This document shows positions 4,338 to 21,660 of a stretch of DNA of 64,000 nucleotides, one piece after another. Both the position numbers and the translations under genes were made by a program. The notes beneath the pieces were generated by a model, which was not told where the DNA came from, did no database searches, and saw nothing but the letters and a program-made list of their open reading frames with translations. The stretch spans positions 24,707 through 88,706 of the forward strand of contig CAVWOZ010000057.1 of the NCBI GenBank assembly GCA_963756595.1, given 5' to 3'. This DNA is from an uncultured Acidobacteriota bacterium (GTDB lineage Bacteria > Acidobacteriota > Thermoanaerobaculia > Multivoradales > UBA5704). Within the stretch, counting starts at the first letter, position 1, and every line of letters begins with the position of its first letter.

Positions 4338-5445
4338 ATGAGAGGCTTCGGCGCCATCCTTCGCAAGGAGGGGTTGCAGATGATCCGCGACCGGGCGACG
4401 CTCCGCTTCTCGCTCGCCATCCCGATCTTCCAGCTCGTCCTCTTCGGACTGATCGACACCAACGTCCGGCACGTGCCGACGGTGGTCTTCGACCAGAGCC
4501 GGAGCGCCGAGAGCCGGGCGCTGATCGACGACTTCGTGAACACCAGCTACTTCGAGGTGGTGGGCTACGCGCCGTCGCGCGCCGCCCTCCGCGAGCAGAT
4601 CGTGGCCGGCCGCGCCTCGGTGGGGATCGAGGTCCCCCCCGACTTCGACGAGAAGCGGCAGCGCGGCCAGTCGGCGAACTTCCTGGTGCTGATCGACGGC
4701 TCGGACTCGAGCATCTCGGCGCAGGCCTTGGGCGCCGCCAACGGCGTCGGCGCTCAACCAGTCGCTCGAGGAGATCCGCGCCAAAATCGGGGTCAGCGAT
4801 TTTCCCCTGGAGGCGCGGCCCACGCTCCTCTTCAACCCCGACTCGCGGAGCGCCAACCTGCTGATCCCCGGGCTCGTCGCCATCCTGCTCACCTTCTCGG
4901 GGACCCTCCTCTCCGCCTACGCCATCGTGCGCGAGCGCGAGCGCGGCACCCTCGAGCAGCTGATGGTCACCCCGGCCTCGCCGCTCGCCGTGGTGCTCGG
5001 CAAGATCCTGCCCTACCTCGCGCTCTCCTTCGTGCAGCTCTGCTTCGTGCTGGCCCTGATGACCTTCGTCTTCAAGGTGCCGATCCACGGCAGCCTGCCG
5101 CTGCTGCTGGGGCTCTCGCTCGTCTACCTCTTCGCCCTGCTGTCGCTGGGGCTCCTGGTCTCCTCGCGGGCGAAGACGCAGATGGAGGCGACGCAGCTCG
5201 CGCAGATCATCCTCCTCCCCTCGATCATGCTCTCCGGCTACATCTTCCCCCTCTCCTCGCTGCCGGCCCCCCTGCGCGTCGTCTCGCAGATCCTCCCCGC
5301 CACCCACTTCATCGCCATCTCGCGAGGGATCATCATCCGCGGCGCCACCTTCCAGGACCTCTGGAGCCACGTCGCCGCCCTCCTGGTGATCGCCGCCGTC
5401 CTGGTCGCGGGAAGCGCGCGGGCGTTCCAGAAGACGATTTCGTAG
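4338..5445 (+). CDS. ABC-2 type transporter permease (YhhJ-like), with a frameshift near 4745.
   Basis: [37 protein letters not shown]... in frame 3 up to ~4745. It continues in frame 1 as ...[15 protein letters not shown]...[39 protein letters not shown]... through to 5445. Confidence 0.7.
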
Positions 5446-5469
5446 GGGGCCAGGTCGTCAGGAGGATTC

Positions 5470-5700
5470 GCCAGCCCCGAAGGGGCGAAAGCATAGAGCC
5501 TGGGGCGTGAGCCCCAGGGAACCGGCCTCCCGACCTTCCAAAGCCCCGAAGGGGCGGCAGCAGACCCTGCCCGGAATGGTCTGCTGCCGCCCCTTCGGGG
5601 CTGGGGTCAAATGGCGCGCACGAACCTGGGGCTTACGCCCCAGGCTCTACGCTGCCGCCCCTTCGGGGCTGGCGGTGTGCCCGTCGGGCATTTTCCAGAT
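5470..5700. repeat. Cluster of GC-rich hairpin (REP-like) repeats in the intergenic region.
   Basis: Four copies of (a/c)gccccgaaggggc(g/t) in both orientations. Additional stem-loops: cctggggcGTGAgccccagg (GNRA loop), cctggggcttacgccccagg, and cagcagaccctgcccggaatggtctgctg. Confidence 0.55.
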
Positions 5701-5932
5701 CCTGCTCAAGCTCTTCGGGTTTCTCGCCGAAAGGCGAAAGGCCGTGCTGTCCCAGCAGGAACAGGAAGGTCGTCCTGGGTACCCCGGCCAGCTTGGCGGC
5801 CAAGCCCGAGCTGAGCCTCCCCAATTCGTAGAATTTGACCGCGAGAAGCAGGCGAGCCTCGGCCTCGAACTCGTCCGGTTCCTCTTGCAGGGCTTGGAGA
5901 ATCTCCGGCGGATAGGGGATGGTCAGGTTCAT
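5633..5932 (-). CDS. UPF0175-family small HTH protein (antitoxin-like).
   Basis: MNLTIPYPPEILQALQEEPDEFEAEARLLLAVKFYELGRLSSGLAAKLAGVPRTTFLFLLGQHGLSPF is the typical UPF0175 fold. Its 3' end runs into the hairpin repeats. Confidence 0.6.
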   Translation of the reverse strand: MNLTIPYPPEILQALQEEPDEFEAEARLLLAVKFYELGRLSSGLAAKLAGVPRTTFLFLLGQHGLSPFGEKPEELEQDLENARRAHRQPRRGGSVEPGA

Positions 5933-5992
5933 GGTCGTCACGCTTTCTCGAAGGGTAACACCGCCTCCATATACTCGACAGAGGAGAACACG

Positions 5993-6208
5993 ATGCCTGA
6001 GATAGTGATCCAGCTGGACGATGAGACCGCCGAGCGGCTGCGAAAGGCTTCCGAGAAGGATGGGATCAGTCCCTCGGCTTGGGTGAAGCAAGCGATCCGG
6101 CTCCGGCTCCACGACAAGCTTCCCGACTCCTTCTTCGCAGTCCTGGGCACCTGGGAGGACAGCCGAAGCACGGAAGAGATCCTGCGGGATCTCCGGACTT
6201 CCGGTTAA
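5993..6208 (+). CDS. Ribbon-helix-helix-like small protein (putative antitoxin), 71 aa.
   Basis: MPEIVIQLDDETAERLRKASEKDGISPSAWVKQAIRLRLHD.. has the RHH beta-strand then helix pattern. Divergent from the UPF0175 gene. Confidence 0.5.
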   Translation: MPEIVIQLDDETAERLRKASEKDGISPSAWVKQAIRLRLHDKLPDSFFAVLGTWEDSRSTEEILRDLRTSG

Positions 6209-6254
6209 CCCGGCCCGATCCTTGCTCCCCTCCCCAGGGCAAGGAGGAACTGCC

Positions 6255-6488
6255 TTGCCAAACTCAAGATCCGCCAACACTTACGACCCCCTCGATCCCC
6301 GCCGCGACCGCGATCCCCGGGAGCCGACCGACGATCCGGCGCGCGAGGAGCCGCTGGACAATCCCGACGAGGACCCTTTGGAGCAGCCGCCCGTCGGCGA
6401 CCCCGGGGAGGCCCCGGAGGACGAGCCGGTCCGGCGCGACCCGGATTCGAAGGAGCCTCCGATGCAGATGACGCCGGTGAGGAGCTGA
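6255..6488 (+). CDS. Small acidic, proline- and aspartate-rich protein (predicted disordered).
   Basis: AAGGAGG RBS 7 nt upstream of TTG 6255. Sequence is NTYDPLDPRRDRDPREPTDDPAREEPLDNPDEDPLEQPPVGDPGEAPEDEP... Low complexity. The opposite-strand ORFs here are high-GC artefacts. Confidence 0.3.
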   Translation: MPNSRSANTYDPLDPRRDRDPREPTDDPAREEPLDNPDEDPLEQPPVGDPGEAPEDEPVRRDPDSKEPPMQMTPVRS

Positions 6489-6515
6489 CCGCCCGGCCCT
6501 GCTAGAGTACCCGCC

Positions 6516-7334
6516 ATGTTCGGCCGCCCGCGCTCCGGCTCCACCCTCTGCCCCTCCTGCGGCAAGCTGGTCGGGGTCAACGACGACGTCTGCCTCAATT
6601 GTGGCCGCAAGCGGCCCGGGATGTGGGGGCTGACGTCGCTCCTGCGCGGGGTGGGGAAGGACATGGGGCTGGTGCAGGCGGTGATCGTGGGGAACGCGCT
6701 CCTCTACGTCGCCATGCTGCTCTTCGACCCCGGGAACATCGGAATGTCGGGGCTGTTCAACCTGCTGGCTCCGAGCCCCCGCGCCCTGATCCGCTTCGGG
6801 GCCGCCGGCGCCATCCCCGTCTTCGCGCTGGGGCACTGGTGGAGCCTCCTCTCCGCCGGCTGGCTCCACGCGAGTCTCCTCCACATCGGCTTCAACCTCT
6901 ACTGGATCCGCTTCCTCGCTCCCGAGACGGCGGAGCATTACGGCCCGTCGCGCACGGTGATCATCTACTCGATCTCCTCGATCACCGGTTTCCTGGCCAG
7001 CAGCCTGTTCGGCTCGCAGCTCACCGTGGGAGCCTCGGCGCCGATCCTCGGCCTCCTCGGCGCGCTCGTCTACTTCAGCCGCCGCACCGGCAACAGCCAC
7101 GTGGGGCGCATGGCGTGGACCTATGCCATCTTCATGATCGTGATGGGATTCTTCGGAGCGCGCACGGACAACTTTGCCCACATCGGCGGCTTTCTCGGCG
7201 GCTTCCTCGCCGGCGTTCTGCTCGACCCCCGCAAGAACGAGACGGGGAACCACACCCTGGCCGCGCTGGTCTGCCTGCTCCTCACCGTGGCCTCGGTCGT
7301 GGCCTCGCTGGTGGTGCCGCTGCCGATGCGGTAG
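6516..7334 (+). CDS. Rhomboid-family intramembrane serine protease with an N-terminal zinc-ribbon.
   Basis: CPSCG...CLNCG zinc ribbon. Six TM segments. Catalytic GASAP (Ser) and AHIGGFLGG (His) motifs. Confidence 0.85.
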   Translation: MFGRPRSGSTLCPSCGKLVGVNDDVCLNCGRKRPGMWGLTSLLRGVGKDMGLVQAVIVGNALLYVAMLLFDPGNIGMSGLFNLLAPSPRALIRFGAAGAIPVFALGHWWSLLSAGWLHASLLHIGFNLYWIRFLAPETAEHYGPSRTVIIYSISSITGFLASSLFGSQLTVGASAPILGLLGALVYFSRRTGNSHVGRMAWTYAIFMIVMGFFGARTDNFAHIGGFLGGFLAGVLLDPRKNETGNHTLAALVCLLLTVASVVASLVVPLPMR

Positions 7335-7420
7335 CGGTTTCCCGGGAAATTCGTGGCGCCGCCCCGGTTTTGTCCCGCGGGAGCGTCACGCTCCCCCGGT
7401 TCTCGTTTTGGAAGACCTGT

Positions 7421-7865
7421 TCAATGTCACGTTGCACAGGTTCCACGTTCCGGAAAACCTGTGCTTCGTTCCGTTGCGCAGGTTCACCGTTCCGAAGAAC
7501 TTGTGCAACGTCCCGATGCCCGACGTCAACGTTCGGATGCACGGGTGCATCGTCACGATGCACAAGTTCCCCGGTCTGAAGAACCAGTGCAACGTCACGA
7601 TGCACAGGTTCCCCGGTCTGAAGAACGAGGTCAACGTCACGCTGCACAAGTTCACCCTTTGGCGGAACCAGGTCAACGTGACGTTTCCCTGGGTCAACGT
7701 TCGAGAGCACCAGGGAATCGTCCCGCGGAACCACTTCCACGGTCCGTGGAACCTGTGCAACGTCTCGTTGCACAGGTGCATCGGCCCGCTGCACTTGGTC
7801 AACGTCACGCTTCCCCGGCGCAACGGCCGGAAGCACCGGGTCAACGTCACGTTTCACCGGGTCGC
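7421..7865. repeat. Degenerate 42-bp tandem repeat array, about 10 units.
   Basis: Units resembling caacgtcacgatgcacaggttccccggtctgaagaaccagtg. Open in three or more frames on both strands. A partial copy recurs at about 10160-10215. Confidence 0.8.
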
Positions 7866-8000
7866 CAGATCGTGGCACAGGGCGGGAGCTTGTAACCTTT
7901 CGACCCTGGAGCCCGCCTGTGACTGGCGGAGGCTGAGCAGTCCCTGGAATGGCCCAGCTCTGCGCGGCCCCTTCTTCGGTCCAAGCCGAAAGGAGCGTTT

Positions 8001-8252
8001 ATGATGTCTGGAAATCTCGTCACCCGTTCCACGTTGTTCGCTCTTCTGCTGGTGATGCTCGCGGCCGTGTTCATGCTGCTGACGCCGAAGCCCGCCATGG
8101 CCTGCCCGGTCGGTTTCAACCCAACGACGTCAACCATCTACTACACCGATGCGAGCGAAACGAAGATCTCCTGTACGGCGGGAGGCTGCGACAACAAGAC
8201 CTGCACCCCCACACCCTATTTCCGGACCGTTCACCTTTGCTGCTCCGCCTGA
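8001..8252 (+). CDS. Small secreted cysteine-rich protein (83 aa precursor; signal peptide plus ~50 aa mature part with 6 Cys).
   Basis: AGGAG RBS 5 nt upstream of ATG. Signal peptide MMSGNLVTRSTLFALLLVMLAAVFMLLTPKPAMA. Mature part CPVGFNPTTSTIYYTDASETKISCTAGGCDNKTCTPTPYFRTVHLCCSA. Confidence 0.6.
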   Translation: MMSGNLVTRSTLFALLLVMLAAVFMLLTPKPAMACPVGFNPTTSTIYYTDASETKISCTAGGCDNKTCTPTPYFRTVHLCCSA

Positions 8253-8261
8253 GGATGGTTG

Positions 8262-8345
8262 AAGACCGGGCGGTGTTCTGTGCGCGTCGTCCGAAGGGGC
8301 GAAAATCTGATGAGCCGGGTGCTTTAGCACCCGGTCTCGGCTGGT
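8262..8345. repeat. REP-like hairpin repeat, partial copy.
   Basis: gtgcgcgtcgtccgaaggggcgaaaatctgatgagccgggtgctttagcacccggtctcgg matches the family found at 9255, 9950, 31188 and 31320. Confidence 0.7.
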
Positions 8346-8435
8346 GGTGCTGCTGCCGATGCGGTAAGACGGGGCGGAGGCGCGCGACGCTGGGGGAAAG
8401 GCGGCGCAACCCGGGGCGATGGCAATTCTTCTCAG

Positions 8436-8750
8436 GGACGGACCTCTCCCTGACGAGTACGCCGTCATCCCTCGCGGGGACGGGCCTCTCCCCGGCGGGG
8501 ATGGAGAGATTCATCGCAGGTACGGGCCTGTCCCTGGCAGGGACACCCCTTTCCCCGGGTTGTTGAGGCCTTGCCCCGGGTTGTTGAGGCCTTTCCCCGA
8601 GTTGTTGAGGCCTTGCCCCGAGTTGTTGAGGCCTTGCCCCGAGTTGTTGAGGCCTTGCCCCACGATGCCGAGACGTTGCCCCGGGTTGTCGAGCCTTCGC
8701 CTCGTGATGTCGAGGCTTCCCCCCGTGATGTCGAGCCTTCTCCCTCGCGG
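8436..8750. repeat. 21-bp tandem repeat array, about 15 units. Five are perfect copies of ccccg(g/a)gttgttgaggccttg.
   Basis: 8560-8665 holds five near-identical 21-mers. Degenerate units sit on both sides. All frames are open. Confidence 0.8.
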
Positions 8751-8794
8751 GTCCGCGGCTCCCCGAGACAGCGGCGCGCTCCTGCGATGCTAAA

Positions 8795-9217
8795 ATGCTC
8801 GTTCCCATGGACAACACGTATGAATTCGTCGCGCGCCGCGCCTCGGTCCGGCTGGCCGCGAGCCTGGACCCGAACCTCCCCGCGTTCACCGAGCGAGCCC
8901 TTGCCGAGGACGGCGCTCCTCGCGCAACCACCCGCTCCGCTTTCGACATAACCACCGGCATCGCCCTCTCGTCCCTCCTCCTGAACGTCGTCAAGTTCGG
9001 CTGGGACGCCTACCGGAGCCTCCAGAGTGACCGGGAGAAGGAAAAAGAGAAGAAGGAAAAGGCCGAGGCGGACGACCGCGAGCTTCGCCAGTTGCTCATC
9101 CGCCGGATGCGGCTGAATCTGGGTGAGCCCCGCAGCCTCACGGCCGCGCAACGTGACCTGCTTCTCGAGGCCGTGGCCGAGGAGATTTTAGTTTCCGAGG
9201 ACTCCGGGCGGCGATGA
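8795..9217 (+). CDS. Hypothetical protein (charged, coiled-coil-like C-terminus).
   Basis: ORF of 140 aa, ...DREKEKEKKEKAEADDRELRQLLIRRMRLNLGEPRSLTAAQRDLLLEAVAEEIL... No strong RBS. Confidence 0.35.
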   Translation: MLVPMDNTYEFVARRASVRLAASLDPNLPAFTERALAEDGAPRATTRSAFDITTGIALSSLLLNVVKFGWDAYRSLQSDREKEKEKKEKAEADDRELRQLLIRRMRLNLGEPRSLTAAQRDLLLEAVAEEILVSEDSGRR

Positions 9218-9254
9218 GCAGCCGCGGAAGGGCTCCCGCTTGGGTGAACAGCTC

Positions 9255-9420
9255 ACTGCACTCGGCGGGCCGGCGGCTTGTGCGCGTCGCTACAAGACAC
9301 CCTGGAAAGTTCCTCACCGCGCGCCCCGAAGGGGCGAAAATTTGATTAGCCGGGTGCTTTAGCGCCCGGTCTCGGACGTTCCCTATCCCACCCGCCCCGA
9401 GGGGGCGGTGCTCTTCGCGT
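9255..9420. repeat. REP-like hairpin repeat, full ~165 bp copy.
   Basis: cactgcactcggcgggccggcggcttgtgcgcgtcgctacaag...cgccccgaaggggcgaaaatttgattagccgggtgctttagcgcccggtctcggacgttccctatcccacccgccccgagggggcggtgctc. Confidence 0.75.
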
Positions 9421-9504
9421 AGAATTCGCCAATCGCCTCATCGACCCATCTAAGGAGGAACGGTGCGGTCGAGCATTGCAAGGCAGCAGGCGAGGGCCAC
9501 GAGC

Positions 9505-9877
9505 TATGAGCAAGACCGATACTACGCGGGTGACCGTGAAGCCTGGTGAGGAGCTGCCTCGCGGCGAGACCGATTGGGCGCGCGTGAATGCGATGACGGA
9601 TGAGGAGGTGATGGCGGCGGCCGTCTCCGATCCCGATGCCCAGCCGCTTGACCCGGAGGCCTTAGCGAAGATGCGCCGGGTCTCTCCCGTGAAGGTCCTG
9701 CGGCAGCGGCTCGGCATGACCCAAACCGACTTCGCGGAAGCCTTCCGGCTGCCCGTCAGCACCTTGCGGGATTGGGAGCAGCATCGCAGCATTCCCGATG
9801 CACCCGCCCGCGCGTTGCTGCGAGCGATCGACCGTGATCCCGAGACGATGCGACGCCTGCTGTCCGAGGCGGCTTGA
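9505..9877 (+). CDS. HTH DNA-binding protein, antitoxin-like (XRE / COG2944-type HTH with an N-terminal BrnA/DUF4415-like region).
   Basis: ...DEEVMAAAVSDPDAQPLDPEALAKMRRVSPVKVLRQRLGMTQTDFAEAFRLPVSTLRDWEQHRSIPDAPARALLRAIDRDPETM. Flanked by direct REP-like copies. Confidence 0.6.
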
Positions 9878-9949
9878 ACCTCTGGGAGCCGGGTCCATGG
9901 AGAAGTGCTGGGAGAAGTGCCACCCTCTTGGCGGCGGCAGGTGAAAAGC

Positions 9950-10118
9950 CAACTGCACTCGACGGGCCGGCGGCTTGTGCGCGTCGCTACAAGCCATCTT
10001 GGAAGGTTCCCCACCGCGCGCCCCGAAGGGGCGAAAATTTGATTAGCCGGGCGCTTTAGCGCCCGGTATCGGACGTTCCCTATCCCATCCGCCCCGAGGG
10101 GGCGGTGCTCTTTGCGCG
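9950..10118. repeat. REP-like hairpin repeat, full copy in direct orientation to the 9255 copy.
   Basis: Identical in more than 90% of positions to 9255-9420. Confidence 0.75.
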
Positions 10119-10268
10119 AGCCTGAGGAAGAGCGTAAGCCCGGGGAAGTGCCACCCCGGTCCGAGAACCATGGCAACGTCTCGTTGCACCTATGCCTCAG
10201 TCCGCGAAACCTGGGAAACGTCACCCTACCTGGCGAGCACCTACATCCATCCCGCTGGAATGCTTATC

Positions 10269-11765
10269 CTATACTGACTCCCAGGTGAGCGGTAGTGTCC
10301 TTGGATGGTCGATTTCCCCATGATACGCTCTTACAAACAGCTTAATCCAGCGCTGCGCAAAATCGCCCATGTCTTCGTCATCGATAAGTCGCGGCCTATA
10401 AGCTTCCTGCTGCACGCCCATCGCTGGCCCCATCGCCTTAAGCGCGGTATACGTGCTGTCTAATGCGTATGGCTGAAAGCCACCACTACCGCCAAGGAAG
10501 GGTGAATCCATATATCCAACCTCCCACCAGCGATACTGATCGCCACTGACTCGTGCATACCAGAGCGATGCGCCCCACACGTAGTGTGAAGCTTCATTCT
10601 GCGTGACGTTGATAGTTGCTCCCGTAATAATGTCCCACTCGCGACGCTCCACTCCGTCATATCCATAGGACGAGTCAGTCGAGAGCTTTTTGATGTCTAG
10701 CCGAGCCGATCCAAGGATTGCTCGCCAGCCGCTCGTTCCTCTGCCTGGTCTCTCAATCGTCACCGATGGTGCGTCCCGCTCAATTGCTGTGAGTAGGTGT
10801 TCAATCACCTCGGTAAGCGCCCGGGATGCATCTCGCGCTAGTTGGGCTCTCCGCTCTATCTCTACGCGGCGTTTCTCCGTCTCTGATTCCTGTGCGGCCT
10901 GCCGTGCAGCCTCCAGGGCGCCTGCTTGAGCAAGTGTAGAAAACGCGCCTGGGGAGGGTTTGGCCTTGTCTTGGTCGGCGAGGAACTCCTCGAACAGTTT
11001 GATTGCACGTTCGCGCGTTGGCCGTGCTTCCGGCGCTTTGCGCAGCATCATCGTCAGCGCAGAGCGCAGGCGGGGATGCACACCCGACAGGTTGGGTGGC
11101 GGCGCTTCGAGATGCTGGCGCCGCAACTGGTCTAGAGAGCCTGAGAAGGGTGGCGCTGCGGTCAAAAGTCCATAGCCGATGCACCCAAGCGCGTAGATAT
11201 CCGTTGCAGCAGAAGCTCGCAAGGTCTGCCACTGCTCCGGAGCAGCATACGAAGGAGTAAGGCATTCCTTGAGGGTGTGCAGCGAAGTCGACTCTTCGAC
11301 AAAGCGCGCTATCCCGAAGTCCGCAATCTTCCAGCGTCCTTCATGCCAGAGCACGTTTGGCGGCTTCAAATCACGATGCACAATATCAGGCACCTCTGAG
11401 AGCCCACGCAGGATGTCGAGCAACGCTCGTGCCGCGGCCTCCTCTCCTAAAGAACCGATCGCATTGAGCTTGTCTTGTAGGCTCTCTGCGGCACAGGCCA
11501 TGACCACAAAGTAACGCGCTGAATCGGGGTCTAGGCCGGAGTCATGCATGGGGATGACGTGCTGAAAGGACTTGCCCGCAAGGTGCTGCGCAATGGAGAG
11601 TTCCCGATGGGCAGCTTGGTTTGCGCTAATCTCCAGCCGTTTCACTGCCACCTCGTGCCCATCCTCATCTTGACCAAGAAACACAGCTCCAAAGCCGCCG
11701 GGAGTTCCAAGCGGCCTAGTCTCATCCACTAGCCAGCGGCGGGCCTGTAGCTGAATTGTTCGCAT
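10269..11765 (-). CDS. Ser/Thr protein kinase (Hanks-type) with a coiled-coil linker and a ~170-aa uncharacterised C-terminal domain. Lies in a low-GC patch.
   Basis: GxGxxG-like GTPGGFGAVF, VAVK, HRDLKPPNVL, DFG, APE. The C-terminal region ...DSSYGYDGVERREWDIITGATINVTQNEASHYVWGASLWYARVSGDQYRWWEVGYMD... has no recognisable family. Local GC is about 55% against about 70% in flanking DNA. Confidence 0.85.
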   Translation of the reverse strand: MRTIQLQARRWLVDETRPLGTPGGFGAVFLGQDEDGHEVAVKRLEISANQAAHRELSIAQHLAGKSFQHVIPMHDSGLDPDSARYFVVMACAAESLQDKLNAIGSLGEEAAARALLDILRGLSEVPDIVHRDLKPPNVLWHEGRWKIADFGIARFVEESTSLHTLKECLTPSYAAPEQWQTLRASAATDIYALGCIGYGLLTAAPPFSGSLDQLRRQHLEAPPPNLSGVHPRLRSALTMMLRKAPEARPTRERAIKLFEEFLADQDKAKPSPGAFSTLAQAGALEAARQAAQESETEKRRVEIERRAQLARDASRALTEVIEHLLTAIERDAPSVTIERPGRGTSGWRAILGSARLDIKKLSTDSSYGYDGVERREWDIITGATINVTQNEASHYVWGASLWYARVSGDQYRWWEVGYMDSPFLGGSGGFQPYALDSTYTALKAMGPAMGVQQEAYRPRLIDDEDMGDFAQRWIKLFVRAYHGEIDHPRTLPLTWESV

Positions 11766-11945
11766 TGCGTCAGTATAGTCGACTCGAAGACTCCGAGAAA
11801 AATCTGCAGCGAGAAGCATCTGTTCCAGGAAGTCCAGTTACTACCTGCGCCGCCTTCAAGAGATTCGGAGTTATCGATATCCCACTCGCTACACCGCGCA
11901 CGCAGCCCGGCCGGCCCCGGCCCGACCGGCAGCCCCCCAACCCCC

Positions 11946-12590
11946 CTACCCCGGCAAAATCCCCAACTCCTTCGCCCGCCGCCGCACCTGATACGCCTCC
12001 TTGGTCTCCTGGCTGCTGAAACGCTCCTCTTTCCACGGGTCGCCGTAGGTGTGGTAGCCGTTCTCTTCCCAGAAGCCGCGGCGGTCTTCGGACATCAGCT
12101 CGACGCCGTTCACCCATTTGGCGCTCTTCCAGGCGTAGAGGTGGGGGACGACGAGCCGCAGGTGGCCGCCGTGGTCGACTTCGAGGGGCTCGCCGTTGTG
12201 GCGGTCCACGAAGAGGGCGTGCTCGGAGAGGAAGTCCTCGAGGGGGAGGTTGGTGGTGTAGCCGCCGTAGCAGTGGATCATCACGTGCGAGGCCTCGGGG
12301 TCGACGCGGACCTGGCGCAGCACCTCGCGAGTCGCGAACCCCTCCCAGCCGTTGTCGAGGGTGGAGAAGCGGGTGACGCAGTGGAAGTCGGCAGTCACCC
12401 GCACCCGGGGCAGGGCCTGGAGCTCCGCCCAGGAGAAGGTCCGCTCCGCTTCGACAAGGCCGAAGAGGCGCAGCTTCCAGCGCTCGGGGGCGATGTTCGG
12501 CGTGTCGCCGTAGGAGAGGACGGGCCACTTGTTGGTGGCGTACTGCCCGGGGGGGATGCGGTCGTCTCCGGTGTGAGGCGCGTCGTTCAT
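11946..12590 (-). CDS. Sulfite-oxidase-family molybdopterin-binding oxidoreductase (YuiH-like; Moco domain only).
   Basis: ...RVRVTADFHCVTRFSTLDNGWEGF...HLYAWKSAKWVNGVEL... has the conserved Cys in the HCVTRFS motif. Confidence 0.8.
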   Translation of the reverse strand: MNDAPHTGDDRIPPGQYATNKWPVLSYGDTPNIAPERWKLRLFGLVEAERTFSWAELQALPRVRVTADFHCVTRFSTLDNGWEGFATREVLRQVRVDPEASHVMIHCYGGYTTNLPLEDFLSEHALFVDRHNGEPLEVDHGGHLRLVVPHLYAWKSAKWVNGVELMSEDRRGFWEENGYHTYGDPWKEERFSSQETKEAYQVRRRAKELGILPG

Positions 12591-12685
12591 GCTTGCTTGC
12601 TTTCCTGTTTTTATCGTTAAACTATAGTATTGTGGAGGAAGATTCCAGATTCACTGGGTTCGTTCAACGTTCAGGAGACTCATCT

Positions 12686-13023
12686 ATGTCGAGAGGATTT
12701 CGTGGTATCGCCTGCGCCGGCTTGACGGCGGCTGCTCTGTGCCTGCTGTCGGCGGCGCCGGCGGCGGCGTTCTGCTCGTGAAAACCCCCGTCTACAATAC
12801 CGGAACTCTCACCGGGACGGGGAACACCTGCTCGGATGCAGACACGGATCTCAGGGTCATTCTGGATGCCGCGGCCACGTCCAACTGCATGACCATTTAT
12901 GGCCCGAATGCGGACGTCTATTGGTCCAGCTACGTCGTGACCGTGAACTCTTGCCAGCCGAACGGAGTGGGCAAGAAGGAAACGGGCAGCGCCAGCTACC
13001 AGTGCATCTCCTGCTCCGTCTGA
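12686..13023 (+). CDS. Secreted cysteine-containing small protein (~110 aa), with a frameshift near 12775.
   Basis: AGGAG RBS, then ATG 12686. Signal peptide MSRGFRGIACAGLTAAALCLLSAAPAAA. The rest continues in a second frame as ...VKTPVYNTGTLTGTGNTCSDADTDLRVILDAAATSNCMTIYGPNADVYWSSYVVTVNSCQPNGVGKKETGSASYQCISCSV. Confidence 0.5.
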
Positions 13024-13155
13024 ACCGAAGGCACGGAAGCCGATGAGAGGACCGGCTCCGGGGGGAGAGCCCTGGAGCCGGTCGCGGGGCGCATCGTTCA
13101 TGGGCTTGTCTCCTCGCGGGAACTCAAGGGTGCCGGCTCCGTATAGGTAGGATAC

Positions 13156-14400
13156 ATGGCGACCCACCCGATGTTCTCCTGGCGCGGACAGCTCCACGCC
13201 CTGGCCCTGGGGGCGGGGGTCGGCCTCGGGGCGGGCTTCCTCATCTCGCCGGCAACCCGCCCGGGAGCCGCTGGATCTCCTGGATCTACGGCGCCCTGGT
13301 CGGCGTGGGGATCACGGTCATGGCGCGGGCGGTGGTGAGGATCTTCCGGGCCCGCTTCGAGGCGATGTCCCGCCCCCAGGCGATCCTCGCGTTCGCGGCG
13401 CTGTTCGCCGCCAGCGGCGCCGTGGCCTGGGTGCTCGCGGCCCTCAGCCTCAACCTGACGTTCGGGCTCCACATCCCCGTGCTCTCGCGGGGGAACCTGC
13501 TCTCGGTCGGCATCACGGTGGGGCTCGCCGTGACCTGCGGCCTCGCCATCGCGAGCTTCGAGCGGATGAAGGAGCTGCTCGCCGAGAGCGTCGCCCGCCT
13601 CAAGGAGACCGAGTTCGCCGAGCGGGAGCTGCTCCTCGCCCGCGACCTCCAGAGCCGGCTGCTGCCGCCGCCCGAGGTGGCGGGGGAGGGGTACCGCGTG
13701 GCGGCCCGCAACCTCGCGGCGCGGGTGGTGGCGGGGGACTTCTATGACGTCTTCCGGCTGGCGGACGGCGCCGTGGGGCTCGCGGTGGCGGACGTCGCCG
13801 GCAAGGGGATGGCGGCGAGCCTGATCATGGCCTCCGCCAAGGCGCGGCTCCCCCTCCTCGCCGGGGACCGTGCGGCCGAGGCGACGCTGCGCGAGCTCAA
13901 CCGCGCCCTCGCCGCCGAGCTCTCGCCGCGCGAGTTCGTGGCCCTCGCCTTCGTCCGCTACGACCCGGCGACGGGGACGGCTACCCTCGCCAACGCCGGC
14001 CTCCCCGATCCCTACCTGCTCCGAAGGGAGAGCCGCCGCAGCCGCTCGTCGTCCCGGGGCCGCGCCTGCCGCTCGGGGTGCGGCGCGAGGTCGCCTACGA
14101 GGCGCTCAAGCTCCGCCTGGAGCCGGGCGACCGCCTCCTGCTGCTGACCGACGGCCTCGCCGAGGCGCCGACCGCGGCGGGGGAGCCGCTGGGCTACGCC
14201 GCCTTGGCCGCGCTGCTGGCGGCCGGGCCGCACGAGGGGCCCCGCTGGCCTGGATCGACGCCCTCTGCGACCGGGTGCGGCTCGCCACGGGGCCGGTCTT
14301 GGAGGACGACTGGACGGCGCTGCTGCTGGAGCGGGAGGGTAGCCCGGGGCGGCGTCCCCGCCCGGGCAGCCCGGGCAGTCCGAAACGAGAAGCCGGCTGA
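13156..14400 (+). CDS. Membrane-anchored PP2C-type (SpoIIE/RsbU-like) serine phosphatase, with three or more frameshifts.
   Basis: N-terminal TM helices, then GDFYDVFRLADGAVGLAVADVAGKGMAASL... and ...LLLTDGLAEA... The gene must be read across three frames (13156, 13305 and 14078/13870 ORFs). Confidence 0.7.
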
Positions 14401-14430
14401 AGCCGCCTCCGTAGTCGGGGGAGGTCCAGG

Positions 14431-14454
14431 AGCCGGGGTCACCCGGCTTTTCGG
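14431..14454 (+). terminator. Rho-independent terminator downstream of the phosphatase gene.
   Basis: agccggg-gtca-cccggct stem-loop followed by TTTTCGG. Confidence 0.5.
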
Positions 14455-14585
14455 TCGCAGCGTAGCCCGGGCATTCATGCCAGGGGCGGACGGCGTCCGG
14501 CATTCGGCTCTCGGGAATTCGTGACCAAGGAAATCACCTTTACACCCATGCCCCTGTCTGCTAGCTTGAGCGGACGGACCGGACC

Positions 14586-15550
14586 ATGCTCACCACGACC
14601 CCATCCGCCCAGGAGATCCCCTCTCCGTCCTCCGACCGGCGGCGCCCGGTGCGCTTGCTGGAGACGATCGGCAACACCCCCCTGATCGACCTCTCGGCGC
14701 TGACCGGGCGGCCCGAGGTGCGGCTCTACGCCAAGGCGGAGCTGGCGAACCCCGGGGGCTCGGTGAAGGACCGGGCGGCGCTCGCGATGATCCGCGACGC
14801 CGAGCGGCGGGGGCTGTTCGCCGAGGGGCGGCGGCTGCTCGACGCGACCTCCGGGAACACGGGGATCGCCTACGCGATGATCGGCGCGGCGAGCGGCATC
14901 CCGGTGACGGTCTGCCTGCCGGAGAGCGCGAGCCCGGAGCGCAAGAAGATCCTGCTCGCCTTCGGCGCCGAGCTGCGGATCACCGATCCGCTGGCGGGGA
15001 GCGACGGCGCGATCCTCGAGGCGCGGCGGCTGGTGGCGGCGGAGCCCGGGCGCTGGGCGTATCTCGATCAGTATTCGAACCCCGAGAACTGGCGGGCCCA
15101 CTACCGCTCGACCGGCCCGGAGATCTGGAAGCAGACGGCGGGGGAGATCACCCACTTCGTCACCGGACTGGGGACCAGCGGCACCTTCATGGGTGTGGGG
15201 CGGTACTTACGTGAGAAAACGCCGGGGGTCCGGCTGATCTCGGTCGAGCCCGACTCGCCGTTCCACGGCCTCGAGGGGATGAAGCACATGGCCTCGGCGA
15301 TCGTGCCGCCGATCTACGATCCGGCGCTCGCCGACGAGGCCCGCGAGCTGCCGACCGAGGAGGCGTACCGGATGGTCAAGCGGCTGGCGCGCGAGATGGG
15401 GCTGCTGGCCGGGATCTCCGCCGGCTGCAACGTGGCCGCCGCCCTCCAGGTGGCGGCGAGCTCCCGGCGGGCCGGTCCGCCACGATCGTCACCGTGCTCT
15501 GCGACGGCGCGGACAAGTACCTGACCGACCGCTTCTGGGAGGAGGACTGA
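14586..15550 (+). CDS. cysM: CysM-type cysteine synthase (O-phosphoserine/sulfur-carrier dependent), with a frameshift near 15465.
   Basis: PLP lysine motif SVKDRAA. Also GNTGIAYA and GTSGT. The true C-terminus ...TIVTVLCDGADKYLTDRFWEED* is reached only after a frame change. Confidence 0.85.
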
Positions 15551-15552
15551 GC

Positions 15553-16035
15553 ATGAGCCGCCTGGTGATCACCCCCCAGGACCTCGAGGCGATCGGCCGC
15601 CACGGCGAGGCGACCTTCCCGGAGGAGTGCTGCGGCTTCCTGATCGGCCGTGCAGGCGACGCCGAGGGCGGCGAGACGACGACCGTCGTCGAGCGGCTGA
15701 TCCCGGTCGCCAACGAGCGCCAGGACAGCCGCCACAACCGCTACGTGATCGAGCCCGAGACGGTGCTCGCGGCCCACAAGGAGGCGCGCGCGGCGGGCGC
15801 CGACGTGGTGGGTTACTATCATTCGCATCCCGACCATCCGTCGCGGCCGAGCGATTTCGACCGCGAGCATGCCTGGCCAGGACTCTCGTACCTCATCGTC
15901 TCCGTGCAGCAGGGGCGGGCGGCGGATTCGCGCTGCTGGCGCCTCGCCGATGACCGCGACCGGTTCGACGAGGAGACGATCGATCAGGCGGCCGCAACGG
16001 CGGCCGCCGTCAGTTTCGACAAGGAGGCGGTCTGA
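15553..16035 (+). CDS. JAMM/MPN+ metalloprotease (Mec-like; cleaves CysO-cysteine or C-terminal extensions).
   Basis: EECCGFLIG plus the JAMM motif [14 protein letters not shown]. Confidence 0.85.
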
Positions 16036-17504
16036 TGAGCGTCAACATCCAAATCCCCACCCCGCTGCGCCGTTTTACCGCCGAGCTCGGCGAGGTCGCG
16101 GTCGACGGGGCGACCGTCGGCGAGGCGATGAACGACCTCACCCACCGGCATCCGGCGCTCCAGCGTCACCTCTATGCCGACGACGGCGCGCTGCGCAGCT
16201 TCGTGAACCTCTTCCTGAACGACGAGGACGTCCGCCATCTCGCCAAGGATGCGACGCCGCTCAAGGACGGCGACACCCTGACGATCATCCCGTCGATCGC
16301 CGGCGGCGCAAACAGCGCGGGAGGGGCCTTCGGCCTCTTCGAGGAGCGGGACGACGACGAGCTGCCGGGACTCTCGCAGCCCGAGATCCGCCACTACAGC
16401 CGCCACCTGATCCTCCCCGAGGTCGGCACTCTGGGGCAGCGCAAGCTCAAGGCGGCGAGGGTGCTCTGCATCGGCGCCGGCGGCCTCGGCTCGCCGCTCG
16501 GGCTCTACCTGGCGGCGGCGGGGGTGGGGACGCTGGGGATGGTCGACTTCGACGTGGTCGACGAAAGCAACCTCCACCGCCAGGTCCTCTTCGGGCGGGG
16601 CGCGGTGGGGCGGCCGAAGATCCAGGCCGCGGTCGACCGCCTGCGCGACTTGAACCCGCACATCAAGGTCGTCCCCCACGAGGTGCGGCTCGACTCGTCG
16701 AACGCCCTCGAGCTGTTCCGGGATTACGACCTGATCGTGGACGGCACCGACAACTTCCCCACCCGCTACCTGGTCAACGACGCCTGCGTGCTGCTGGGGA
16801 AGCCGAACGTCTACGGCTCGATCTTCCGTTTCGAGGGGCAGGTCTCGGTGTTCTGGGGGGCCAGGGGCCCTGCTACCGCTGCCTGTTCCCCGAGCCGCCG
16901 CCGCCGGGGCTGGTGCCGTCGTGCGCCGAGGGGGGGGTGCTCGGCGTGCTGCCGGGGATCATCGGCTCGCTCCAGGCCAACGAGGTGATCAAGCTGATCG
17001 TGGGCGCCGGCGAGCCGCTGATCGGCCGGCCTGGTCCTCTTCGACGCCCTGAAGCTCAAGTTCCGCGAGCTCAAGCTGCGCAAGAACCCCGACTGCCCGA
17101 TCTGCTCCGAGCACCCGACGCAGACCGCGCTGATCGACTACGAGCAGTTCTGCGGCATCGATCCGTCGGCGGACGCCGTCGAGCAGGCGTTCGAGATGTC
17201 GACCCCCGAGCTCAAGAGCTGGCTCGACGAAGGGCGGCAGGTCACCTTGCTCGACGTGCGCAACCCCCAGGAGTGGGAGATCTGCCGCATCGACGGGGCG
17301 AAGCTGATCCCCCTCCCCGAGATCCAGGACCGCCTGGGCGAGCTCGATCCGGCCGAAACCCTGGTGGTCTACTGCCACCACGGGCCGCGCTCGGGCCGCG
17401 CCATGAACTTCCTGCGCCAGATGGGCTTCTCGCGGGCGATCAACCTCGCCGGGGGGATCGATTCGTGGAGCGAGAGGGTGGATCCGGCGGTGCCGCAGTA
17501 CTGA
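16035..17504 (+). CDS. moeZ: CysO/MoaD-like sulfur carrier fused in frame to a MoeZ-type E1 (ThiF domain plus C-terminal rhodanese). Two frameshifts, near 16860 and 17030.
   Basis: Residues 1-97 form the MoaD/ThiS fold and end in ...[10 protein letters not shown] ~25-aa linker follows, then the ThiF domain (GxGxx[10 protein letters not shown], CxxC pairs) and rhodanese [11 protein letters not shown] 16035 overlaps the mec stop. Confidence 0.75.
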
Positions 17505-17519
17505 GCGGCGGGAACAAGG

Positions 17520-17640
17520 GACCCCAGGGACCCCAGGGACAGCAGGGACCCAGAGACAGCGGGCGGGTTTTTGTCCCTGCAGTCTCTGAAGTCCCTCCGT
17601 CCCTGGTCTCACCTTCCGCAGCACCTCCCCTTCGTGATAA
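17520..17640. terminator. Long imperfect palindrome / terminator-like structure after moeZ.
   Basis: gggaccccagggaccccagggacagcagggacccagagacagcgggcgggtttttgtccctgcagtctctgaagtccctccgtccctgg. The arms are reverse complementary around a TTTTT. Confidence 0.4.
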
Positions 17641-17664
17641 TTCTCCTTCCTCAAAGGAGAATTC

Positions 17665-18161
17665 ATGGACCGCCCCGCCAATCAAGAAGACGCGAAGCTG
17701 ATCCTGCACCTCTACGAGCTGCGCCGCGAGCCCCGGATGCGCGAGGCGCGCGACTGGATCGCCCGCAGCTTCCGGGTGAAGACGATGGAGGAGCTCCAGT
17801 CCCTCTGCCCCCGGGCTCGGACGGCCATACCTCGTTCCGCATGGTCGGCTCCTACTGGGAGATGGTCGCCTCCTTCGTGGTGCACGGCGCCCTGCACCAC
17901 GAGCTGTTCTACGAGAACTGCCAGGAGCTGCTCTTCTTCTGGGAGCGGGTCCGCGAGCTGCTGCCGAAGCTCCGCGAGGCCAATCAGAACCCGGCGTACC
18001 TGAAGAATGTCGAGCGGGTGGCCGGCTCCTGCATCGAGTGGTGGGAGGACCGGGCGCCCGGCGCCCATGCCGTCTTCTCCGCCCGGATCAACCAGATCCC
18101 GCCGGGCGCCGCCCAAAGCCTGAGCCCGCGGCGAATTTCATCCCAGGAGATCGATTCTTGA
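17665..18161 (+). CDS. Hypothetical protein, with a frameshift near 17815.
   Basis: [49 protein letters not shown] continues in a second frame as ...[83 protein letters not shown]... Confidence 0.45.
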
Positions 18162-19803
18162 GCCAGAAGACATGGTGCCTCGCCCTCCCCCTCCTGCTGC
18201 TCTGCGCCGGCGCCGCGCTGGCCCAGCCGCCGCAATCTTCGCAGCCATCGGAAAACTCCCAACGCCGCTCGGCCTCCATCGTCCGACGAGGCCCCCGAGG
18301 CGATGGACCGGCCGCGTTCTCGGCGGGGAGGGCCCCTCGAGCAAGGCCGAGCGGGCCGAGAAAGCCCGCCGCCGCTGAAGGCTGAGGACAAGCTGCGTCA
18401 CCACCCAGCACCACGCGATGATCGGCGGCCAGGACATCCGCTACACGGCCACCGCCGGCACCCTGATCCTGCGCGACGAGGACGGCAAGCCGCAGGCGTC
18501 GATCTTCTTCACCGCCTACACCCGCGACGGCGTCAAGGAGATGGGGAAGCGGCCGATCACCTACACCTTCAACGGCGGCCCGGGCTCCTCGTCGGTCTGG
18601 CTCCACCTCGGCGCCTTCGGTCCGCGCAAGGTGGTGCTGGAGGACGAGGGGTGGGCGCCGCCCCCGCCATACCGCATGGCGGACAACGGCGAGTCGCTGC
18701 TCGACGTCACCGACCTGGTGTTCATCGATCCGGTGACCACCGGCTACAGCCGGGCCATCCCGGGGAAGGACGCCCGCAACTTCTACGGCGTCACCGAGGA
18801 CGCGGAGGCGGTCGGCGAGTTCATCCGCCTCTACACCACCCGCTTCCACCGCTGGTCGCTCCCCGAAGTTCCTGGCCGGCGAGAGCTACGGCACCACCCG
18901 CGCCGCGCGGCTCTCCAACTACCTCCAGCAGAAGCACGGGATCTACCTCAACGGCATCGTGCTCCTCTCCTCGATCCTCAACTTCCAGACCGCCAGCTTC
19001 GCGGTGGGCAACGACCTGCCGTATCCCCTCTTCCTGCCGACCTACACGGCGATCGCCTGGTACCACAAGAAGCTGCCGGCGGACCTCCAGGCGGGGAGCG
19101 TGCAGAAGGCGGTCGAGGAATCGAAGAAGTTCGCCGCGGGGGAGTACACGCTGGCCCTGATGCGCGGCAGCCAGCTCTCGCCGCAGGAGTGGAACGACGT
19201 CGCCGCCAAGGTCGCGCGCTACACCGGCCTCTCGGTCGACTTCGTGAAGCAGGCCAACCTGCGCCCCGAGATCCAAGCCTTCGACAAGGAGCTGCTGCGC
19301 GACCAGCGGCTCACCGTGGGGCGCCTCGACGGCCGCTTCAAGGGGCGGGACCGCGACGCCACCGGCGGGCGGGACGAGTTCGATCCCAGCAACGCCGCGA
19401 TCACCGGGCCGTTCACGGCGACGTTCAACGACTACGTGCGTCAGGACCTCGGCTTCAAGAGCGACCTCCCCTACGAGATCCTCACCGACCGCGTGCGGCC
19501 GTGGAACTACAGCCGCGGAACAGCTACCTGAACGTGGCCGAGGACCTGCGCACGGCGATGAGCCAGAACCCGGCGCTCAAGGTCTTCGTCGCCTGCGGCT
19601 ACTACGACCTCGCGACCCCGCTCTTCGCCGCCGAGTACACCTTCAACCACCTCGGCTTCGAGCCCGACTACGCGCAGCGGATCGGCCTCCACTACTACGA
19701 GGCCGGGCACATGATGTACGTCCGCCGCGCCGACCACCAGCAGCTGAAGAAGGACATCGCGGCATTCATCACCTCGGGAGGCGAGCGGGGGGAGCGGCAA
19801 CTA
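18160..19803 (+). CDS. Peptidase S10 (serine carboxypeptidase) family protein, secreted, with multiple frameshifts.
   Basis: Signal peptide [23 protein letters not shown]. Motifs FNGGPGSSS, GESYGTT (Ser nucleophile), ...YEAGHMMY (His). Must be read across three or more frames (18160, 18418, 18959). Confidence 0.6.
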
Positions 19804-19859
19804 GCCGTCGGATATGCTCCCGCGAGATGCCCATGCCGCTTGGAGAGTCAGCGCCGGCC

Positions 19860-20878
19860 GATGACGCGGGGGGCGCCGGGTCCCCGCCGTCTTCAGGGGC
19901 GACGCGTGGTCCTGCTCGGAGGGCTCGGCTTCCTCGGCCTCAACCTCGTCCCGGAGCTGCTGGACGCCGGGGCCCGGGTGGAGATCGTCAGCCGCTCGCT
20001 CGATCCGCTGGCGCTCTCCTGGCTCGCCCGCCAGGCCGGCGGCTCCCCGGTCGCCGTGCACTTGGGCGACATCCGCGACGCCGAGAAGCTCCCGGTCTGG
20101 CTGCAGGACGCCGACCTGGTGATCAACCTGGCGGGTGAGTCGGGGGCGGTCAAGAGCGCGCGCGACGCGCTGACCGGCCGAGGTCAACGTCGGCGGCCAC
20201 CTCGCCGTGCTGGAGGCGCTGCGGGAGCGCCGCGGCCCGCGCGGGTGGTCTTCATCTCCAGCCGGCTGGTCTACGGCGTGACCGGCTCGGACCCGGTGGA
20301 CGAGGCGCATCCGGTGCGCCCCACCAGCCTGTACGGCCTCCACAAGCTGACCGTGGAGCACTACCACCGTCTCTACTGGGAGCACTTCGGAATCCCCTCT
20401 ACGGTCCTGCGGCTGACCAATCCGTACGGGCCCTTCCAGCTTCCCGACCGGCGGGAGCACGGCATCGTGAACCCTTTCGTCCTCGCCGCTCTGGTGGGGA
20501 GACCATCACCCTCTTCGGCGGCGGGCGGGAGTGCGGGACTACCTGCATGTCTCCGACGTTACGGCGGCGATCCTCGCTGCGCGACGGCGGGAGGCCGTGG
20601 GGAGACCCTCAACGTCGGCTCCGGGGTCTCGGTGAGCCTCCGCGAGGTGGCCCGCCGGATCGTCGAGATCGCCGGCTCCGGCGAGGTCGCGCCGGCCCCT
20701 GGCCCGCGGGGTTCCAGCGGATCGAAACCGGCGATTTCCTCTGCGACATCGGGCGTATCGCGCGCCTCCTCGGCTGGCAGCCGATGACCGACCTCGAGAC
20801 GGGGCTGCGGAGAACGGTCGCGGGTTACCGGGGGCCTCGCCGCGAGGACTGTCCGGTCGTGATCGGCGGCGCGCGATG
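19860..20878 (+). CDS. NAD-dependent epimerase/dehydratase (SDR family), heavily frameshifted.
   Basis: Rossmann motif VVLLGGLGFLG. Catalytic YxxxK in SLYGLHKLTVEHY. The C-terminus ...RIARLLGWQPMTDLETGLRRTVAGYRG. Five or more frame changes. Confidence 0.6.
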
Positions 20879-21069
20879 AAGATCGCCGATCGCTGGCGCG
20901 CCTGCTGCGCCGTGAAACGCTCTCGCCGGCTCTGATGCCGCTGATACCTGTCCGCGCTGATGCCGTCCGGCGAGCCGATCTTCCTCCACCGGCCCACGGC
21001 CACCCTGCCACGGCATCACCCCCGAGGTCTTCCGGGGTTTCCATCAGCTGTCGCGCCCCGTAATCGGAG

Positions 21070-21660
21070 ACCCTGGCGCAGCCGCTATGGGGTCCCGCCG
21101 GACGTAACCTTCGTCGCATATCACAACTACAAGCACGAGTGCCTGATCGAGAGGCGTTACGAAGCCTATGGGATCCGGGACTACGTCGTGTTCGGAAGAG
21201 AGGTCGCGGCGTGGAGTGGGGGCGAAGATCACCCTCGTCCTGGACTATCTGGAGTCCGGCGCCTGCGCCACCCGCTACCTGCTCTGCACGGACGCGGACG
21301 ACGTGCTGATGATCCGCGACCGGCGTCGCTGCTCGACCGCTTTCGCTCCTACTCGTGCGACCTGTTGTTCTGCAACACCTTCATCACTACCCGCCGGACA
21401 AGGGCTGCCGCGACTTCGAGACCCTGAAGCCTACACCATCGGCTCCATGGCCGGCTCAGCGCCGGTGCCTACCTGGCGGAAAAGGAGGCGCTGGCGGGCG
21501 GCCTGCGGGAGCTGGCGGACGCCTACCACCAGAACGCGCCGTGGGCGCTCGAGAACGGCGCGTTCGTGGACCAGCTGGGCCGGCGGGTCCACCACGCCGG
21601 GACTATCCCAAGATCGAGGTCGACTACCGGAGCCTGGTCTTCAAGCGCTACGACGTGTTC
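21070..21660 (+). pseudogene. Possible glycosyltransferase-like gene remnant, multiply frameshifted.
   Basis: The fragments ...TFVAYHNYKHECLIERRYEAYGIRDYVVFGREV..., ...KITLVLDYLESGACATRYLLCTDADDVLMIRD... (DxD-like) and ...DYPKIEVDYRSLVFKRYDVFREVVDRGQYQP lie in three frames. Partly overlaps the opposite-strand FkbM gene end. Confidence 0.25.

Follow-up and report, generated by a model that had tools for sequence, protein, structure and literature searches.

The subject of this analysis is a gene for a Hanks-type Ser/Thr protein kinase, encoded on the minus strand of a stretch of 64,000 nucleotides (the window) from a Thermoanaerobaculia (Acidobacteriota) metagenome-assembled genome (MAG). The gene lies in a 4.6-kb gap (7335-11945) between a rhomboid protease gene and a gene for a molybdopterin-binding oxidoreductase, together with a small helix-turn-helix (HTH) gene, two small open reading frames (ORFs) and repeats. 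The oxidoreductase gene is upstream of the kinase gene on the same strand, and its product is 82-86% identical to those of Thermoanaerobaculaceae MAGs. Coordinates of the features are collected in Table 1.

The ORF list places the kinase ORF at 10269..11819 and gives 516 amino acids from the first ATG. The likely gene is shorter, covering 10269-11765 (498 amino acids plus stop), with the ATG at 11819 lying upstream in the same frame. A start at 11765, already preferred in an earlier sequence-only reading of this DNA, is likely because the homologues are 485-505 amino acids long and align from M19, the second methionine of the longer form, with 96-97% coverage. The gene has a G+C content of 57.7% and a G+C content at third codon positions (GC3) of 58.9%, against 68-75% and 89-97% for the backbone genes and a window mean G+C of 66.5%. 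The contrast of about 55% with about 70% in the flanks that had been noticed earlier is therefore roughly right, and the contrast in GC3 is much stronger. A scan for promoters and terminators around the gene gave nothing beyond chance.

The kinase protein matches the Pfam Pkinase profile (PF00069) with 124.9 bits (cutoff 31.7, E 4.8e-36) over residues 37-273 of the 516-residue form. All of the Hanks motifs are present (numbered here on the 498-residue form), namely GGFG, K42, E55, H130-R131-D132, K134, N137, D149-F150-G151, APE at 175-177, D189 and R248, and they are conserved in homologue alignments of 33 and of 110 sequences. Judged by these motifs, the gene is intact and catalytically complete. 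The enzyme is an RD (arginine-aspartate) kinase with conserved activation-loop residues T160, S161 and T164, and the kinase domain has a family-specific N-terminal beta extension in which W11 and D14 are conserved. The nearest solved kinases, StkP, PknB and PknA, match at an E of about 1e-21 over residues 22-256 only. No membrane segment was detected in the protein (maximum Kyte-Doolittle 19-residue mean 1.22), and neither PASTA, FHA nor any other further known domain was found in it with Pfam or NCBIfam. An AlphaFold2 (AF2) model of the full-length protein, built on the 110-sequence alignment, reached a predicted local distance difference test score (pLDDT) of 89 and a predicted template modelling score (pTM) of 0.78, and consists of the kinase, a single continuous helix and a beta-rich domain. 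The predicted helix is unbroken over 58 residues (274-331) and belongs to a linker segment (269-331) whose length is fixed at 60-64 residues across the family, even at a mean pairwise identity of 33% (57% in the kinase and 44% in the C-terminal domain). The complete kinase and the lack of a membrane anchor or of PASTA and FHA domains, both proposed by the sequence-only reading, are thus borne out, and the segment of about 60 amino acids that it took for a coiled coil is predicted to be helical.

The C-terminal alpha/beta domain of 167 residues is the least familiar part of the protein. The last 200 residues modelled alone with AF2 gave a confident fold (pLDDT 91.3, pTM 0.89). The domain has no match in Pfam, NCBIfam, PADLOC or PHROGs, and none among PDB sequences, either as a single sequence or as a 30-sequence profile. 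Foldseek against PDB and BFVD returned a best E of 0.18 and TM-scores of about 0.3 or less, so that neither the sequence nor the fold libraries yielded a match to a known ligand-binding domain. When the domain alone was searched against 1.84 billion cluster representatives (50% identity clusters), it matched 529 clusters at E<=1e-3 and 201 at E<=1e-10. Nearly all of these are kinases of about 490 amino acids that end in this domain; the shorter matches that were inspected mostly begin within the kinase and look like fragments. The earlier description of an orphan domain therefore holds in that it is absent from annotation libraries and fails in that at least 529 clusters carry it. On these alignments and searches, it is a conserved but undescribed domain family. 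In the entropy and length profile its core (377-418 and 458-492) equals the kinase in conservation; this core contains the motifs WDV..GA.I.V.Q, W.ASLWY, YRW.EV.Y and P..IDDE...F..RW, with W377, D378, Q389, R412, W413, E415, Y418, D462-D463-E464, R472 and W473 conserved or nearly invariant. Two segments, 332-376 and 419-432, are variable in length as well as in sequence. In one protein fragment (P0202), an N6-methylase-like region that carries the motif DCTCGTGTF comes after the domain.

Comparison with related genomes indicates how the kinase gene came to its present site. The order JAB - CysM - (SpoIIE) - oxidoreductase, followed by the convergent rhomboid gene, is kept in about 25 related loci, and the spacing between rhomboid and oxidoreductase genes is about 100 bp in four relatives (L013, L017, L020 and L021), about 600 bp in L014 and L018 and 3.85 kb in L015 and L016. 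The L015 gap (10640-14490) is filled with a GntR regulator, ABC transporter genes, a membrane protein and a DinB-like ORF and has no kinase; for L016 the evidence is that the gap has this size and lacks the kinase. The kinase was found at the rhomboid/oxidoreductase site in none of 29 related Thermoanaerobaculia loci, and its nearest homologues (83% and 71% identity) occupy unrelated neighbourhoods. Since it is missing from these loci and has its homologues elsewhere, the gene is best explained as a recent insertion into a variable hotspot, and the GC3 anomaly, taken with the same two observations, shows that it was acquired horizontally. Judged by composition and synteny, then, the gene is foreign and recently imported, and the site, judged by the gap contents of its relatives, is a general insertion hotspot. 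The horizontal origin that the sequence-only reading had suggested, and the variable presence among relatives that it had proposed to check, agree with these comparisons.

Two further observations concern the same site. The last 27 nt of the rhomboid gene (7307-7333) are repeated with 96% identity at 8340-8366, 1,033 bp downstream, in what looks like a target duplication left by insertion; between the two copies lie 42-nt tandem arrays and a small Cys-rich ORF (8001-8252). A second metagenome contig, L003 (ERZ25039594), matches the window at essentially 100% identity between 5438 and about 13000, kinase island included. Over the region compared (5438-21462) the identity falls to only 87-96% from about 13300 onward, and this break is either a strain recombination boundary or an assembly chimera.

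The kinase belongs to a family that occurs in at least six bacterial phyla, in one archaeal MAG (Hodarchaeota, Asgard) and on plasmids. Named sources include Desulfovermiculus, Anaerolineae, Pirellulales, the Hodarchaeota MAG and Thermoanaerobaculia, and full-length homologues are about 45% identical across phyla. Full-length copies are present in ten plasmid records, including plasmids of Streptomyces, Rhodococcus and Variovorax, and a family member was found on five IMG/VR viral contigs; there is no full-length copy in 50,697 GenBank phage records. In six Streptomyces plasmid records (H1-H3 and H5-H7) the family member is located about 4-14 kb from the end of the record; linear topology is confirmed for H1 (CP109147.1) only.

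The genes around the family members were compared across 73 loci with 491 flanking ORFs, and no neighbour family occurs in more than 4 of the 73, in keeping with the standalone gene that had been proposed. The commonest neighbours are tyrosine integrases (4 loci), HsdM (3) and IS200 transposases (3). When the three ORFs closest to the kinase on either side were tallied by Pfam family, the most frequent were ResIII/DEAD, Phage_integrase, TIR_2, Y1_Tnp (IS200), Methylase_S, Eco57I and PIN, with single matches to SIR2 and SMODS. The corresponding PADLOC tally is redundant, with many models per protein, and was used qualitatively only. Eleven contexts were annotated with Pfam. In one, the kinase is embedded in a type I restriction-modification (R-M) operon in the order hsdR-kinase-hsdM-x-hsdS, with a gap of 8 nt to hsdM; this arrangement belongs to a single protein, P0106 (loci L005 and L006 and two similar contigs), and is not the rule. 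Another has the order pglZ-brxL-kinase of a bacteriophage exclusion (BREX) system, followed by an integrase/primase element. Elsewhere the kinase is accompanied by an nSTAND NTPase and an MmeI-type enzyme; by DUF2971, AbiEi/AbiEii and type IV secretion system (T4SS) genes; by two TIR proteins, a methylase, a TrwC relaxase and a RES toxin; by PIN toxins, an AAA protein and an archaeo-eukaryotic primase (AEP); by an integrase and transposases; and by DUF3800, a Mut7-C PIN protein, DUF559 and PemK. Three settings are essentially housekeeping. Bona fide defence genes lie within one or two genes of the kinase in 5 of the 11 annotated contexts, and 8 of the 11 show defence or mobile-element hallmarks; both are raw counts with no matched control. 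The co-localisation of homologues with defence genes that the sequence-only reading had proposed to look for is therefore seen, between hsdR and hsdM, after brxL and beside nSTAND/MmeI, AbiE and TIR genes. Comparison of the loci shows that family members pass from genome to genome as lone genes, with no conserved partner, and that they land repeatedly in defence islands, R-M operons, integrative elements and plasmids.

By alignment and predicted structure, this is a large, undescribed family of soluble proteins, each composed of an RD kinase, a linker of 60-64 residues and an alpha/beta C-terminal domain with two variable segments. The interpretation we favour, to which we give about an even chance, is that the protein is a single-gene sensor-plus-kinase conflict module, most likely anti-phage and of the abortive-infection type. 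We infer the anti-phage role for the family as a whole, whose members are candidate single-gene defence proteins. In such a module, sensing or regulation would fall to the C-terminal domain, and the rigid helix would transmit the signal or enforce the dimer geometry. A trigger would release the kinase, probably via autophosphorylation of T160/S161/T164, and the kinase, once active, would stop the infection or the cell by phosphorylating proteins of the host or the phage. A bolder version, which we offer tentatively and think rather doubtful, takes the C-terminal domain for a sensor of new fold and the family for a new, phylogenetically broad class of one-protein immune kinases. The conserved core of the domain would then read a conserved infection cue, not a variable phage protein; acting as a guard, it might for example respond when a neighbouring R-M or BREX system is lost or inhibited. 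The fixed-length helix would couple sensing to activation.

The family resembles several known kinase systems in part. Stk2 of Staphylococcus epidermidis is described as a single-gene Ser/Thr kinase that mediates abortive infection (Depardieu et al. 2016, as cited in PMC9519451), and PD-T4-6 is a single-gene Ser/Thr kinase defence of E. coli (Vassallo et al. 2022, PMC9519451). Like Stk2, the window family combines a cytoplasmic Hanks kinase with a non-kinase region in a single gene; the logic of Stk2, in which an infection cue activates the kinase and leads to mass phosphorylation and arrest, is shared by proposal only. The PADLOC Stk2 model scores 55 bits and aligns over profile positions 118-309 of 500 only, and the C-terminal domain is unrelated; Stk2 membership is unsupported, there being no full-length match. 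PD-T4-6 and the window family are likewise both standalone kinase genes, and the best models of the PD-T4-6 group reach 137 bits. One of these (PDLC04042) is covered over 1-262 of its 292 positions by only residues 19-270 of the protein. Matches of the group as a whole cover residues 19-340 only, and its longer models (e.g. 510 positions) align over the kinase part. The best-scoring defence kinase model is that of MAD6, from the methylation-associated defence system (MADS), with 156 bits for PADLOC mad6. The NCBIfam model NF047741 gives 104 bits against a cutoff of 460 and aligns with the kinase region only. MAD6 membership is not supported, on this sub-cutoff score and on the neighbours, which are the HTH gene, the oxidoreductase, the rhomboid and small ORFs with no mad genes among them. 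Membership of BREX PglW is not supported either (NF033442, 42 bits against a cutoff of 990), there being no BREX genes in this region of the window; one family homologue elsewhere merely follows brxL. Bacterial Hanks kinases of the PknB/StkP/PknA type have RD-kinase chemistry and activation-loop threonines in common with the window protein, which differs from them in having no transmembrane (TM) segment and no PASTA domains and in being accessory and mobile, not core. Identity as a PknB/Stk1 PASTA kinase was rejected on these grounds and on the score of NF033483 (121 bits against 450).

Altogether, the PADLOC and NCBIfam models mad6, PD-T4-6, MkoA, Stk2 and PglW match the kinase fold only, with scores far under the cutoff wherever the model has one, and the matches to all 25 listed PADLOC models stop at or before about residue 350 (516-residue form), short of the C-terminal domain. 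Searching PADLOC, as the sequence-only reading had proposed, thus returned kinase models for the kinase fold and nothing for the neighbours. Its comparison with Stk2 survives as an analogy only, since what the Stk2, PD-T4-6 and MAD6 models recognise in the protein is its kinase fold. Beyond this shared fold, membership of Stk2, MAD6 or PglW is not supported by these profiles, and for PD-T4-6 they give no clear support; by analogy the window protein may work like Stk2 or PD-T4-6. Accessory abortive-infection genes inside type I R-M operons exist, such as that for the anticodon nuclease PrrC. The family recalls this arrangement in the homologue between hsdR and hsdM and in the fragment that joins the C-terminal domain to an N6-methylase-like region; it differs in that the effector is a kinase, not a nuclease, and in that the window copy has no R-M genes nearby. 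No description of this kinase/C-domain family was found in the literature.

A number of points tell against a role in defence. Housekeeping settings make up 3 of the 11 annotated contexts, and the counts of defence and mobile-element genes in the others are raw ones with no matched control. The PADLOC kinase matches are generic, PADLOC returned no match for the neighbours of the window kinase, and the PD-T4-6 label also catches housekeeping PASTA kinases (PMC11514479). No experiment on any family member was found in the literature. Carriage on plasmids and integrative elements fits a gene that serves the element equally well. The core of the C-terminal domain has an entropy of about 1.5 bits, near that of the kinase, whereas many defence proteins sense phage proteins with parts that evolve fast; such a core fits a conserved ligand, host factor or intramolecular interface better. 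In one protein (P0143) an Mrr_cat restriction-endonuclease domain replaces the kinase ahead of the same linker and C-terminal domain. Such an exchange of effectors would speak for the favoured reading, but the protein is a singleton on a 4-kb contig and possibly a chimera, and it was given little weight. For the window itself, the view of the neighbourhood as a defence island was not upheld, as no neighbour matches PADLOC and the HTH gene does not accompany the kinase from locus to locus.

The conserved polar and aromatic residues of the C-domain core, which resemble a ligand site or fixed interface, would suit an accessory signalling or stress kinase whose C-terminal domain binds a small molecule or cellular component, carried as niche-adaptive cargo unrelated to conflict. 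Some family contexts are indeed housekeeping, and in relatives the same hotspot holds the GntR/ABC-transporter cassette, so the site takes any cargo. Against it stand the patchy spread over at least six bacterial phyla at about 45% identity, the lack of a conserved substrate or regulator gene nearby and the repeated position of copies within or beside R-M, BREX, Abi and TIR genes and mobile elements, and we consider this explanation improbable. Quite improbable, too, is a kinase that serves the mobile element as an anti-defence, host-takeover or establishment factor by phosphorylating host proteins, as the kinase of phage T7 does. The Streptomyces, Rhodococcus and Variovorax plasmids with full-length copies, the integrases, relaxases, T4SS coupling proteins and primases beside other copies, and the five viral contigs are all consistent with it, and T7 kinase is reported to disarm defences broadly (PMC13645617). 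Yet the GenBank phage records hold no full-length copy, a position between hsdR and hsdM, with only 8 nt to the latter, is odd for an anti-restriction gene, the window and L008 copies have no element genes around them, and defence genes themselves commonly ride such elements.

Kinase toxins such as HipA exist, and an HTH_3/MqsA-like gene lies 390 bp from the 3' end of the kinase gene, an arrangement that might suggest a toxin-antitoxin module with the kinase as toxin and the neighbouring MqsA/HigA-like protein as antitoxin. This can be nearly excluded. The two genes are convergent, a 177-nt repeat lies between them and the HTH gene is bracketed by its own repeats; no partner is conserved, and the kinase is of the Hanks and not the HipA type. 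Among 106 kinase loci, no HTH counterpart stands beside the kinase except in L003, which has the same sequence as the window; the only other HTH match, in L005, is weak, covers 64 residues and lies 6.5 kb from the kinase. The HTH gene is thus a neighbour and not a partner of the kinase, and it was rejected as an antitoxin partner for want of conserved adjacency or co-orientation. The SpoIIE/PP2C-family phosphatase gene, 1.5 kb from the kinase, was likewise rejected as a cognate phosphatase because it is a conserved backbone gene that adjoins the oxidoreductase gene in relatives without the kinase. The earlier statement that the kinase has no phosphatase or FHA partner agrees with this.

To our knowledge, few cases of kinase-based bacterial immunity have been recognised (Stk2, PD-T4-6 and the kinases inside BREX, MADS and Mokosh), and how immune kinases sense infection is largely unexplained. 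The present family is compact (about 490 amino acids), widespread and of one fixed architecture, it has a sensor-like domain that is modelled confidently (pLDDT 91) and described in no database, and its natural contexts suggest testable links to restriction systems. If it does protect against phage, it would provide a sensor of new fold and a tractable system in which to follow how a signal is coupled to a kinase; failing that, there is still a domain family without annotation that ought to be named. At present it is an unnamed domain family and a good candidate for defence that can be tested directly, short of a demonstrated system. For the source genome, the locus identifies a variable hotspot for insertions, flanked by two conserved genes.

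Table 1. Features of the kinase locus in window coordinates.
Feature	Coordinates	Strand	Basis or remarks
Rhomboid protease gene, conserved left flank	6516..7334	+	Pfam Rhomboid E 5e-25; GC3 0.945; syntenic
Variable gap, rhomboid to molybdopterin oxidoreductase (convergent)	7335..11945	.	Gap sizes in relatives
42/21-nt tandem array	7413..7856	+	Repeat search
21-nt tandem array	8506..8765	+	Repeat search
177-nt dispersed repeat, copy 1 (family D3)	9243..9419	+	Core 9326-9369, sub-threshold
HTH_3/MqsA-like small gene	9476..9877	+	Pfam; convergent with kinase, bracketed by 177-nt repeats
177-nt dispersed repeat, copy 2 (family D3)	9940..10116	+	Rfam RF01687 at gathering score, 10019-10066
Kinase coding sequence	10269..11765	-	ORF list and homologue alignment
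C-terminal alpha/beta domain, residues 332-498	10272..10772	-	AF2 model, family profile
Connecting helix, residues 274-331	10773..10946	-	AF2 full-length model
Hanks-type Ser/Thr kinase domain, residues 1-268	10962..11765	-	PF00069 and conserved motifs
Molybdopterin-binding oxidoreductase gene, right flank	11946..12590	-	Pfam Oxidored_molyb E 2.9e-40
SpoIIE/PP2C-family phosphatase gene	13251..14394	+	Pfam SpoIIE; split across three reading frames

The surroundings of the kinase are as rich in repeats as the sequence-only reading had described, with the tandem arrays and 177-nt repeats now located. A lone unit of the 42/21-nt array (10165-10230) lies directly 3' of the kinase stop codon. The two 177-nt copies are 93% identical, and copy 2 falls between the HTH gene and the 3' end of the kinase gene. 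The core of this repeat is the Rfam Acido-Lenti-1 RNA motif (RF01687), which gives an identity to the repeats earlier likened to repetitive extragenic palindromic (REP) elements, and the core pattern occurs four times in the window against none expected. Acido-Lenti-1 matches lie at 5473-5518 (-), 5625-5670 (+) and 10019-10066 (-), with sub-threshold copies at 8291-8334, 9326-9369 and 31195-31238, and here the motif behaves as a repeated, possibly mobile element. Copies flank a small gene pair at 5633-6208, made up of a UPF0175 antitoxin-like ORF (-, E 3.4e-23) and a ribbon-helix-helix (RHH)/CopG ORF (+) that are close together on opposite strands, neither with an obvious toxin partner.

The antitoxin-like HTH gene reported earlier next to the kinase was found as described. 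Of the small secreted Cys-rich proteins that had been noted, the ORF at 8001-8252 is signal-peptide-like, and for the second, at 12739-13023, the Cys-rich character was seen. The SpoIIE gene is intact in L003 (418 amino acids), and the frame changes in the window reflect either a pseudogene or indel errors of long-read assembly.

Two regions further along the window deserve mention. An AbiEii-type nucleotidyltransferase toxin gene at 27890-28810 (+; Pfam E 1.8e-18, weak PADLOC AbiEii matches) lies in a patch of slightly low G+C, 16 kb from the kinase, and is a separate toxin-antitoxin or abortive-infection gene. The strongest compositional island of the window, at about 53000-59000 (47-52% G+C against about 70%), encodes a class I methyltransferase, a ParA-like P-loop protein, an SSF-type transporter and a B12-binding radical SAM enzyme, and looks like foreign biosynthetic cargo, not defence.

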